Of a DNA stretch of 6,279 nt, positions 2,941-6,279 are shown one piece after another. The notes beneath the pieces were generated by a model. The model saw nothing but the letters and a program-made list of their open reading frames with translations, was not told where the DNA came from and did not search any database. The position numbers were made by a program, and so were the translations under genes. Positions within the stretch are counted from its first letter, which is position 1. Each line of letters starts with the position of its first letter. The stretch is taken from positions 1 to 6,279 of the forward strand of contig JBBSVW010000001.1 of the NCBI GenBank assembly GCA_038046605.1, written 5' to 3'. Origin of the DNA: Candidatus Micrarchaeota archaeon. Lineage in GTDB: Archaea; Micrarchaeota; Micrarchaeia; Norongarragalinales; SBBD01.

Positions 2941-4229
2941 AATTTTCGTCCCCTTTGCAAATTCAGTTTTGCAGGAGACAATCAAGGAAATGCGGTTCGC
3001 GGAGTAAGACCACCCTCGCAAGGGAGGCATCCGGGAATGAAAGTGCTGAGGGATTGTCTGTGCCTCCTAGGCATGGATAATTCCGTTTATGAAGCGGTAT
3101 AGGAAAGAATTTCACTGAGAGTAGTGCTACAAGCCGTTCAGTGGATTGCTAGGCTTGGGTAACGACGACGGGCGCGGCAAGCGGCGAAACGCCCCGGGTA
3201 GGCGCATGCAGCCTTTGATCCGGGGATCCCCTAATTTTTCCGGAAGGAAAGAAGACCGCCTGAATTGAAATATCTTAGTAAGGCGAGGAAAAGAAATCAA
3301 CAGAGATTCCAGTAGTAACGCGAGTGAACCTGGATTATAGGGCAAACCGAATCTTCCCCGCAAGGGAGAAGCATATGTGGTGTGCTAGGCCCCTTTTTTA
3401 ACGCAGTAAGTTAGCCAAGGTTCGTTGGAAAACGACGTCATAGAAGGTGAAAGCCCTGTAGGCGAAAACGATGCTGGGTGTAAGGAGGCCTCGAGTAGGG
3501 CTCGGCGATTTCCGAGTTTGAATGGGAGTATTAACTTCCAACCCTGAATATACCCCAAGACCGATAGCGTATTAAGTACCGTGAGGGAAAGCTGAAAAGC
3601 AGCCAAAAAATGGCAGTGCAAAGTGCATGAAACTGAAACGGCTACATTAAGGTGCGGCTTAAAAGCTGGTATGATCGCAAGTGACAGCGAAGTTGCACCC
3701 TACTTCTTGAAGCAAGAGCCAAGGAGTTCATAGGAGTGGCGAGCATTGAGCGAAGCGAAAGCGAGGCGCACGCACCGTCCGCAAGGACGGGAGGTGCGAC
3801 GTTGTAATTAGCGTCAAGTCACTAATATGAGACCCGAAGCCAAAGCGATCTAAGCGAGCGCAGGGTGAAGCCGTCCTTCCGGATGGTGGAGGCCCGCAAC
3901 CGTTTCTGGTATATCCGATCGGGTGACGCTTGTTTAGGGATGATAGTTCATTCGAGCTTGGCGTTAGCGGGTTCCCTCCGAAGTGTATCTAAGTACAGCC
4001 TCCGTCGAGACTTATAATAGGTAGAGCGACTGATTTGGGGGAGCGGGGAGTAAAATCCTCACCTCCTTGTCAAACTCCGAAGCTATTATGGTCGCAGAAG
4101 CGGGGAGTTGGGATACCCGAGGTAAGCGCGGGTTCCGTGAGGGGAACGACCCCTACTGCGGTTAAGGTCCCAAAGAATTGGCTAAGTGTAAATGCAAGAT
4201 GTCATGGATCTCAGACAGCGGGGAGGTAG

Positions 4230-4975
4230 ACGATACTAGCACGAAAGCAGTTGAAGTTAAGCTTCACTGGAAATCACGTCTAAGAGAACTTATAAACCAT
4301 AAGTTTGATGAGAGATGCGATAATAGATGAAGCCAAATGAACTTGAGAATAAGTTGCCGACAAGGGAGCATATGATTGCTTACCTGTTGGGAGCATTTAG
4401 AGACGGCAGCATTCACAAGTATGGCGCAAGCCGTGAAATAATTGTTTGGCAGAAAAATCCAGTGTGGCTTGAAGGGATTTCATATTTGATTAGGCAGGTT
4501 TTTGAAATCAAGACAATGCCGAAGAAGACGATTGGTGGTTGGAGGTTAAAATTCAAATCAAAGCAAGTATTTGAAATGCTTGTGAAAGATTTTGGTTTTC
4601 CTCAAAGCGGAAAACAAATTTATTGGAAAACGCCTAGTGCGGTTCTTGAGGGAGCAATTCCAAAGGAATCGTATTTAAGCGGATTTTTCGATGCGGAAGG
4701 TTCCGCCCAAATAAAGCCGCCAGCGCTTCATTTTTTCCAATCTTGGAATTTGGAAAACATTTGTCCTCCTCTTGAGGATTTGAAAAACATGATGCAAGAG
4801 TTAAGGATTGATGCGGGCAAAGTCAGATTAAGGAAGCCTACTATTTACGCGAATTATCCAAGGTTTATACTTTCGGTAAGCAACAAGCGCAGCGTAATTA
4901 ATTTTTATCAACAAATTGGATCTCTTCATCCCGATAAGGGAAAAAACCTTCAACTTGCTGCTAGTAACGGCCAAG
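4230..4975 (+). mobile_element. BHB-type 23S intron (746 nt) in helix 43 (GTPase-associated centre), after E. coli-equivalent G1062, carrying a homing endonuclease gene
   Basis: Stem CGaTACTAGCA (4231-4241)/TGCTAGTAaCG (4959-4969), continued by GCAGTTGAAG/CTTCAACTtGC. Central helix AGGT/GCCA pairs at 3 of 4 positions; bulges AG^A and AG^G. Removal restores the H43 length. Confidence 0.92.
4290..4296 (+). promoter_or_regulatory. Putative TATA box (TTATAAA) preceded by purine-rich AAGAGAA, inside the intron
   Basis: Begins 37 nt upstream of ATG 4327. Motif match only, in AT-rich sequence. Confidence 0.35.
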
Positions 4976-4998
4976 GAACAGAAGCTCCCATCCTTTAA
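4327..4998 (+). CDS. Two-motif LAGLIDADG homing endonuclease; the genomic ORF runs 23 nt past the intron end (4975) into 23S exon
   Basis: Motifs YLLGAFRDGS and YLSGFFDAEGS; visibly similar to the 221-799 protein. Confidence 0.92.
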   Translation: MKPNELENKLPTREHMIAYLLGAFRDGSIHKYGASREIIVWQKNPVWLEGISYLIRQVFEIKTMPKKTIGGWRLKFKSKQVFEMLVKDFGFPQSGKQIYWKTPSAVLEGAIPKESYLSGFFDAEGSAQIKPPALHFFQSWNLENICPPLEDLKNMMQELRIDAGKVRLRKPTIYANYPRFILSVSNKRSVINFYQQIGSLHPDKGKNLQLAASNGQGTEAPIL

Positions 4999-5527
4999 AC
5001 AACGCGTAACAGCGGACCCGTCAAGATTCGTGGCGTCGTAAACTATCGGGACTCAAGCCAATCACCGATACCGTGGAATTGCATAGTTAATGCAAATTTG
5101 GTAGGAGGGCGAACGGGCTGGGCAGAAGTTGGGCTGTGAAGTCCAATGGACCAGCTTGTTACGAAAATCTTGGTGCTAGTAGCATCTATTCCAGGCGAGA
5201 ATCCTGGACGTCGAAAGGGCAAGGGTTTCTTGGCAACGCTAATCAGCCAAGAGTTAGCCGGTCCTAACGCTAAACGTAACCGTGATGCGGAAAGGGAAAG
5301 CAGTTAATATTCTGCTGCCTTCTAGGTGAACGCGGCAACGCAAGCTTACATCTGACGCTTGTGGGTACGCCAAGTGCAAGCAATTGCATTCAAGCTGACC
5401 ATCTCAAAGAAGTCTTGTTGAGAGGAGCATTTGAGAAAGCAGCGATGAGCGATGAGTTTGGCTCAGCCCAAAAGCCCATGAAAAGGGTGTATGATTTTTT
5501 CTAGAAGACCGTACCGAGATCCAGTAC

Positions 5528-5836
5528 ATTCCCGCCTTCCTCAGTATTTTTAATTGTGCAGTATGAAATTAGTATGGTGATATTATGCCTGAATTGCTTG
5601 CTGACGATTTAGTAAAAGTCAATGAATTGTTTAAACGTATAAACACTCGTTTACCAACGGTAATTGAGTTGCATAATGGAGGTACAATCAGACAAGCAGA
5701 GCGAGAAAGACTTGCAATGCAAATAAAAACTTTTGAAGAGGCAATCAAAGAGTTTAAACGCAAGCATGGAGGGCATGATTTTTCAAAATATATTGCTTCA
5801 AAATAATACTTATTACGAGGAAGGCGGGATACTGAA
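5528..5836 (+). other. BHB-type 23S intron (309 nt), after E. coli-equivalent C1617, carrying a non-endonuclease ORF
   Basis: Perfect 13-bp stem TCCCGCCTTCCTC (5530-5542)/GAGGAAGGCGGGA (5817-5829); central helix CAGT/ACTG; bulges AC^A and AA^A; exon stem ATC/GGT. Splicing gives CCAGTAC|AGGTGCCCC. Confidence 0.94.
5585..5806 (+). CDS. Hypothetical 73-aa helical protein encoded in a 23S intron
   Basis: The ORF fills the intron loop. GGTGAT (5576-5581) is exactly complementary to the 16S 3' ATCACC in this window. Start and stop are both inside the intron. Confidence 0.72.
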   Translation: MPELLADDLVKVNELFKRINTRLPTVIELHNGGTIRQAERERLAMQIKTFEEAIKEFKRKHGGHDFSKYIASK

Positions 5837-5976
5837 AGGTGCCCCTAGCTGAAAAAGCTAAGACGTGACAGGAGAACTGACGCAAGGGAATTCGGCAAAT
5901 TGGCCCAATACCTTCGGTATAATGGGTGCCTACATCTCTTCAAAGATTTATCGATGGGGATTTGTAGGTCGCAGTG

Positions 5977-6076
5977 ACTTCCAGCAGAAGAAAGAAAAGA
6001 TGACGAGTCTGAACAACCTCTGATCTATGACGATGTTGATAGCGACGGATTTTTCGATATCTGATGGAGGCTGTAT
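5977..6076 (+). other. 100-nt BHB-type 23S intron, after E. coli-equivalent position 1758
   Basis: Central helix GCAG (5971-5974)/CTGT (6071-6074); bulges TG^A and AT^A; stem CTTCCAgCAGA (5978-5988)/TCTGaTGGAGG (6060-6070). Splicing restores GTCGCAGTG|ACCAGGGG. Confidence 0.92.
5994..6055 (+). ncRNA. Putative box C/D methylation-guide sRNA nested in the 23S intron
   Basis: Box C ATGACGA (6000-6006), 13-nt guide, box D' CTGA (6020-6023), 3-nt spacer, box C' ATGACGA (6027-6033), 12-nt guide, box D CGGA (6046-6049). Terminal stem GAAAA (5994-5998)/TTTTT (6050-6054) is placed as required for a K-turn. Confidence 0.75.
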
Positions 6077-6279
6077 ACCAGGGGACATCGACTGTTTAAC
6101 AAAAACACAAGTCATCGCTAAGTCGAAAGGCTGTATACGATGGCTGACGCCTGCTCACTACTAGTACCTGAACCCGGGTTTCAACCTGGTGAAGGGCTAG
6201 CAAAAAGCGGGAGTAACTCTGACTCTCTTAAGGTAGCGTAATACCTCGCCGCTTAATTGGCGGCTTGCATGAATGGCGT

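Follow-up and report, generated by a model that had tools for sequence, protein, structure and literature searches.

Stop-less endonuclease gene in a 746-nt 23S rRNA intron of Candidatus Micrarchaeota and its reading on linear and circular RNA

A long-standing question is which RNA serves to express the endonucleases encoded in archaeal rRNA introns: the precursor, the stable circle or a separate transcript. Excised archaeal introns circularize, a point on which the initial annotation of this locus agrees with the available text of PMC4344496 and PMC3326292, and the circle of the Desulfurococcus mobilis 23S intron is reported, in the available text of PMC11724312 citing Kjems & Garrett 1988, to be translated into a 194-aa endonuclease. 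The routes of expression predict different C-termini, and the DNA analyzed here, together with its relatives, therefore allows a direct test. The whole stretch, of 6279 nt and hereafter called the window, is part of an archaeal rRNA operon, with 16S rRNA (to about 2109), tRNA and 23S rRNA recognized by Rfam. Its operon is crowded by insertions, three of which carry ORFs for LAGLIDADG_3 endonucleases (Pfam). The one under study, the focal intron, is hosted by the 23S rRNA gene (3117..6279, cut at the window end; Rfam RF02540, 1356.7 bits), and this gene, the intron and all of the intron features described below lie on the + strand.

The ends of the focal intron, of BHB type and 746 nt in length (4230..4975), are fixed by an Rfam insertion, by an intron-less allele and by splice-site geometry. 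In the Rfam LSU_rRNA_archaea alignment 759 nt fall at a 13-nt hairpin loop of the model, which is an excess of 746 nt. The best intron-less allele of the 23S site, locus L060 of a Micrarchaeota MAG (flanks of 81-84% identity), has ...GGGGAGGTAG joined directly to GAACAGAAGC..., exactly the proposed exon join, and a length formula based on this allele gives 746 nt for the focal intron. Removal of 4230-4975 restores the conserved mature rRNA sequence, as seen both in the Rfam alignment and in the collinearity of L060 with exon 1 plus exon 2. A terminal AG shared by exon 1 and the intron leaves the position of the cut ambiguous by up to 2 nt, and the sequence of the circle is unchanged by such a shift. 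The intron-less junction of L060 is also a candidate target of the endonuclease. No Rfam family of group I or group II introns reached its gathering score anywhere in the window, and a group I identity of the focal intron was rejected for want of an Rfam match.

The 5' splice site lies in a canonical 3-nt bulge (AG/A, 4228..4230) that is unpaired in the MFE folds and has its homologous counterpart in the likewise canonical bulge of L001 and L002, the orthologous introns considered below. The 5' strand of the central helix (4224..4227) pairs with 4970-4973, the fold giving three pairs (4225-4227/4970-4972) and an A.A mismatch; L001 has four pairs at the same place. The position of the 3' bulge (AG/G, 4974..4976) is supported by symmetry with the 5' cut, by the L060 junction and by BHB scores, and the fold shows a relaxed context there, with no contiguous outer helix. 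The predicted geometry thus has symmetric cuts at 4229/4230 and 4975/4976. A closing stem of 20 bp, with its 5' strand at 4231..4256 and its 3' strand at 4948-4969, is found in both the linear and the circular MFE folds, and the 3' strand is at the same time the last coding stretch of the endonuclease ORF. In L001 and L002 the BHB scorer recovers a fully canonical bulge-4bp-bulge motif at the homologous positions; it did not rank the focal motif first because this motif is relaxed. On the folding models, the focal splice motif is accordingly read as a relaxed form of the BHB. The window does not include the EndA and RtcB genes of its host. Cleavage of non-canonical introns by (alpha-beta)2 and epsilon2 enzymes is described in the available text of PMC5829648.

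Read on linear RNA, the LAGLIDADG homing endonuclease ORF (4327..4998) encodes 223 aa, and its last 23 nt belong to exon 2. The protein matches Pfam LAGLIDADG_3 (PF14528) over residues 115-198 with 30.1 bits against a cut-off of 22.5. Its two LAGLIDADG motifs lie around residues 19-28 and 116-125, and D26 and E124 are invariant in all nine aligned sequences. No stop interrupts the frame of ATG 4327 up to 4975, so that the end of translation depends on which RNA is read. Any unspliced RNA uses the exon-2 TAA (4996..4998), which lies inside the conserved rRNA sequence UUUAAA. On the circle, where 4975 is joined to 4230, the frame continues for 33 further codons and meets TGA 4328-4330, which overlaps the initiating ATG in the tetranucleotide ATGA (4327..4330), for a product of 249 aa. 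This shift of frame, with the stop that follows from it, arises because 746 nt is not a multiple of three (746 mod 3 = 2), and sliding of the cut by -1 or -2 yields the same circle and the same product. The initial annotation had proposed the intron at 4230-4975 with its 746-nt length, the missing internal stop, the two products, the AUGA closure and the independence of this outcome from the AG ambiguity at the junction; the intron is real on the three lines of evidence given above, and all of the other points were reproduced on recomputation. In the circular fold the AUGA region (4322-4331, 10 nt) is predicted to be unpaired. The same TGA also ends an upstream linear ORF (4178-4330), and the AUGA overlap is therefore not specific to the circle.

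The part of the circular frame which lies outside the linear gene is the intron leader (4230..4326, 97 nt), where the frame from 4232 contains no stop and the other two frames contain 2 and 8. Dinucleotide and mononucleotide shuffles leave the 32-codon leader frame open in 5.2% and 7.6% of cases, respectively, and among off-frame windows of 32 codons taken from the ORFs of the window 9.9% are open. The initial annotation had cautioned that an open stretch of 33 codons can arise by chance, and an open leader is expected in 5-10% of cases. An A follows 32% of the ATGs in the window, and the joint chance of an open leader with an A after the ATG is about 2-3%, a figure calculated post hoc. The combination of open leader and AUGA is only mildly unusual and not compelling on its own. 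The codon usage of the leader (+4.26) can be compared with that of stop-free shuffles (-0.18 +/- 3.95), 12% of which reach this score, and with that of in-frame windows (5.05 +/- 3.3), which it resembles more closely; the latter reference is inflated because the training set consists of about 700 codons from the same window. By codon usage the leader would thus appear weakly coding-like. A protein homologue search with the 50-aa frame of exon 1 plus leader (4178-4327) gave no candidate.

The focal insertion site was sought by regex and BLAST screens in all 79 loci of a genome scan. Only L001 (a Woesearchaeota MAG, with a P0005-like protein) and L002 (an uncultured archaeon, with a P0007-like protein) carry an intron there, and about a dozen loci are intron-less at this site. 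The endonuclease of L030 sits in a neighboring, different site. The introns of L001 and L002, of 702 and 703 nt, share with the focal intron the insertion point GGTAG/A..., the closing stem and a GGCC element before the 3' cut, and their endonucleases are homologous to the focal one (48% and 42% identity, respectively). Both have a canonical BHB and an ORF whose TAA forms the last three bases of the intron, in another frame than the end of the window's ORF, so that nothing crosses the junction. The AUGA overlap, which the initial annotation had proposed to look for in orthologous introns together with a preserved open frame, is found in neither of the two, both of which stop on the last intron codon.

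The placement of the stop was also surveyed more widely. Intron-less alleles were sought for 40 endonuclease introns (37 archaeal loci and the window's three) and gave length estimates for 30. The survey comprises 21 introns, namely the window's three, whose ends rest on exon homology, and those of 18 loci in which a canonical BHB of the estimated length ranked top, tied for top or, in L027 and L045, second. The stop coincides to the base with the final 3 nt of the intron in six of the 21 (L001, L002, L006, L013, L018 and L040), lies 1-18 nt before the intron end in four, straddles the cut in one and is located in exon 2 in the remaining ten, where the ORF crosses the 3' splice site. The six terminal stops (L001:4604-4606, L002:4111-4113, L006:4601-4603, L013:4589-4591, L018:4589-4591 and L040:1557-1559) lie directly 5' of the 3' cut, and their last two bases are the first two of the 3' bulge. 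An ORF that crosses the splice site is thus common in related introns, and the absence of a stop from the focal intron can be read, from these sequence comparisons, as one case of a common compact intron design.

When the ten crossing introns are read as circles, the first stop of the endonuclease frame falls at -26, -29, -12, -80, -62, -36, -21 and +1 relative to the ATG, and two of the introns have none. The value of +1 belongs to the focal intron and that of -21 to the window's own 16S intron at 1031-1675; in seven crossing introns, therefore, the stop precedes the ATG by 12-80 nt, and closure by AUGA, found in one of the ten, is unique to the focal intron. The two without a circle-frame stop are the 16S BHB introns L012:3956-4576 (621 nt) and L025:3959-4576 (618 nt), whose lengths are multiples of three and in which one frame is stop-free; once circularized, they would carry an endonuclease ORF without end. 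No ATG lies near the N-terminus of the L025 protein. The same site is also occupied by the intron of L032 (612 nt), where the frame meets just one stop, 12 nt 5' of the ATG. A test for depletion of stops in the circle frame of the leaders was not accepted as evidence of selection. With the window included, the leaders of the ten crossing introns contain 13 stops in the circle frame and 19 and 26 in the others; without the window the counts are 13 versus 17 and 18, which is no depletion, and without L025 as well they are 13, 14 and 11. Of the side results, the stop-less circles of L012 and L025 and the placement of stops on the last three bases stand out most.

A word-indexed protein search yielded nine proteins, and an exhaustive search yielded 137 representatives, only two of them at E <= 1e-30; the lineage of the focal endonuclease is therefore rare. 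Its nearest protein relative, from a Micrarchaeota MAG, is 57% identical, and this match, together with the Micrarchaeota origin of the L060 allele, suggests a DPANN-type host. Five of the nine close homologues (the window's protein, P0002, P0003, P0006 and P0008; alignment A1) share the C-terminal residues encoded by exon 2, in the same frame relative to the splice site and likewise with no intron-internal stop. P0004, P0005 and P0007 terminate about ten aligned positions earlier in the nine-sequence alignment, and the end of P0009 is ambiguous. The junction thus lies beyond the complete endonuclease fold, to which either tail, from exon 2 or from the leader, is an appendage. A sequence search of the PDB gave weak matches (2dch_X, E = 0.13, and another at E = 0.24), none of them significant, and these were therefore left out of the naming. 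Many members of the family, among them P0013, P0015, P0034, P0036 and P0049, have 290-380 aa, with the endonuclease domain beginning at about residue 95-130; their additional residues may be real N-terminal extensions, or the frames may have been called from upstream exon or leader sequence.

The sequences upstream of the endonuclease genes bear on the third route, expression from a separate transcript. Upstream of the window's three endonuclease ATGs there is no match to the anti-Shine-Dalgarno terminus of the 16S rRNA (GATCACCTC, 2099-2107), while both non-endonuclease ORFs have one (GGTGAT 5576-5581 before ATG 5585, and GGGGT before ATG 2578). Shine-Dalgarno matches are almost wholly absent before the endonuclease ATGs of the 19 introns scored for promoter elements. 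The best TATA-like match is centered at -30 to -22 of the ATG in 9.98 of 19 introns against 2.9 expected, a value reached by none of 5000 shuffles and none of 5000 rotations. The scoring covered introns of the fetched loci and the window and used a general archaeal TATA consensus; the 19 introns fall into about ten insertion sites and are therefore not independent. In the focal intron the TATA-like box CTTATAAA (4290..4297) agrees with this consensus at 6 of 8 positions, is centered 34.5 nt before the ATG and is thus weak and outside the enriched -22..-30 band. As far as sequence patterns can tell, the enrichment suggests intron-internal promoters from which leaderless or short-leader endonuclease mRNAs would be transcribed.

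In the explanation that we favor, the focal element is a mobile archaeal BHB intron of the 23S rRNA gene. Its two-motif LAGLIDADG gene is packed against the intron 3' end, and the last codons double as the 3' strand of the stem presenting the splice sites. On linear RNA, whether unspliced or started internally, translation would end at the exon-2 TAA (223 aa), and on a circle at TGA 4328 (249 aa). The arrangement is one case of a common design of DPANN-type rRNA introns, with ORFs that end at, shortly before or past the 3' splice site. The main source of the enzyme would be a linear RNA, most probably a transcript with a short leader or none that starts at a promoter within the intron. Having no 5' half of the splice motif, this transcript could not be spliced, and its translation would terminate at the first exon-2 stop; such unspliceable transcripts would account for the tolerance of stops at or past the splice site. 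The intron ends, the missing stop, both reading outcomes and the frequency of the design are shown by the sequences, and both the RNA that is translated and the internal promoter are what we infer from sequence patterns. Expression from linear mRNA, with the exact AUGA closure as a coincidence and not a coupling device, is on balance the reading that we consider probable.

A tentative, rather unlikely alternative is that the excised circle is itself a working mRNA, on which a ribosome would start at AUG 4327, pass the junction, add the 33-residue tail encoded by the leader and end at UGA 4328 with 249 aa, no special reinitiation being required. The circular frame is real, the leader through which it returns is open where chance would leave it open in 5-10% of cases and is weakly coding-like, and the AUG lies in the predicted 10-nt single-stranded stretch. 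The circularization of archaeal introns and the reported translation of the D. mobilis circle (in the texts cited above) also speak for it, as does the survey, where 10 of the 21 introns have an ORF that could cross the junction. It is weakened, however, by the missing Shine-Dalgarno sequence before the ATG, which internal initiation on a circle might be expected to use, by the 20-bp stem that flanks the junction in the circular fold and by the lack of any homologue of the leader-encoded peptide in the search. Moreover, the fold is complete before the junction, with relatives ending about 10 aligned residues earlier, and the stop-less circles of L012 and L025 indicate that termination on circles does not look selected. 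A broader form of this idea, that circularized DPANN-type rRNA introns serve naturally as circular mRNAs and that only ligation completes their endonuclease frames, appears improbable. If it were true, L012 and L025 would be natural rolling-circle translation templates, the focal frame would close on its own start codon and the focal leader would serve as coding sequence and, at the same time, as the 5' strand of the splice-site stem.

It is decidedly improbable that the open leader is a relic of an ancestral whole-circle frame that was split by a 1-nt change near 4327, where the old frame would now end. Whole-circle frames do exist in the related introns of 621 and 618 nt (L012 and L025), the focal circle would need a single further base to be a multiple of three, the codon usage of the leader is weakly coding-like and many family members have N-terminal extensions of about 100 aa. 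Yet the leader peptide resembles nothing in the homologue search, no intermediate forms were found at the focal 23S site, and L012 and L025 occupy a different site, in 16S, with leaders of only 24-27 nt in which an open frame is unremarkable.

Overlaps of the AUGA type mediate termination-reinitiation in prokaryotes, and the initial annotation had suggested that the focal gene could be coupled to itself, a terminating ribosome restarting on the same circle for repeated rounds. The 4-nt overlap does exist on the circle and is predicted to be unpaired, but we regard such a function as very improbable and the suggestion is not borne out, as the overlap is present in only one of ten crossing introns and in neither of the two orthologues compared at the DNA level, an A follows 32% of the window's ATGs anyway and the same TGA closes the ordinary linear ORF 4178-4330.

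Among the other insertions of the window, a first 16S intron (about 157-800, 644 nt), whose cut can be shifted within GAA, contains a LAGLIDADG ORF with ATG 227 and a TGA (797-799) at the 3' splice site, and is orthologous to the introns of L013, L018 and L040. The second 16S intron (1031-1675) has 645 nt (3 x 215), and its LAGLIDADG ORF (ATG 1106) has no intron-internal stop and extends 75 nt into exon 2, to 1750; as a circle its frame would end at TAG 1085-1087, 21 nt 5' of the ATG. A perfect TTTAAATA is found in this intron at 1079-1086. Between GTGAGGTA and TGTCAGGTTAAGTCC the 16S gene contains an insertion of about 50 nt (about 960-1012), probably a mini-intron with no ORF.

A tRNA-Ala(UGC)-like gene extends from 2346 to about 2560. 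Its T-arm and acceptor 3' strand (…TCCCACCGAGTCCA, about 2546-2559) are split off by about 140 nt containing long inverted repeats, and it appears to have an intron in the T-loop. The Rfam match of this gene is limited to 2346-2414, and ARAGORN reports no tRNA there. The spacer between the tRNA and 23S genes holds a 120-aa ORF (2578-2940) with an SD-like GGGGT upstream, for which no Pfam family was found (best E = 0.0044, below the cut-off). Another insertion in 23S (about 5541-5836), with a 12-bp closing stem CCCGCCTTCCTC / GAGGAAGGCGGG, encodes a 73-aa ORF (5585-5806) which is preceded by a perfect GGTGAT Shine-Dalgarno sequence at 5576-5581 and is not an endonuclease; it gave no family match. 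A last 23S insertion of about 99 nt (about 5979-6077), between GCAGTGAC and CCAGGGGACATCGACTGTTTAAC, has no ORF.

The D. mobilis 23S intron (I-DmoI) and other crenarchaeal rRNA introns are of the same BHB type as the focal intron and encode two-motif LAGLIDADG proteins of about 200 aa. In the available text of PMC11724312 the excised D. mobilis circle is discussed as a protein template, and according to the initial annotation I-DmoI would gain a different C-terminus from the circular form. The two differ in that the focal insertion lies elsewhere, in a hairpin at about positions 1189-1203 of the Rfam archaeal LSU model, and in that its host belongs to another, DPANN-like group; the focal protein has no significant sequence match to solved structures. 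Infinite-ORF circular RNAs, which are eukaryotic or engineered according to the available text of PMC11724312, run through the ligation junction as the focal frame does. The focal frame, however, stops after one turn plus 4 nt, at 249 codons, and is thus not infinite, whereas L012 (621 nt) and L025 (618 nt) fit the definition. The coupling of adjacent prokaryotic genes through AUGA involves the same 4-nt overlap as in the focal intron, yet here the "upstream gene" would be the same gene on the circle and the overlap is not conserved in relatives.

In the literature searched, neither junction-spanning or stop-less endonuclease frames in archaeal introns nor internal promoters for their endonucleases are described, and an earlier description of either may exist in the primary intron papers (Dalgaard 1993, Nomura 1998, Burggraf 1993, Aagaard 1995, Tocchini-Valentini 2011). 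The design rule that emerges, and which the same literature does not state, is that the end of the ORF coincides with the 3' splice site, often to the base. One practical consequence is that gene callers applied to MAGs of this kind append rRNA-encoded residues to endonucleases, as in five of the nine close homologues. For the biology of these introns, the design means that the C-terminus records the RNA that was read: linear RNA would give the exon-2 tail, the focal circle would give the 33-residue tail encoded by the leader, and the circles of L012 and L025 would give concatemers.
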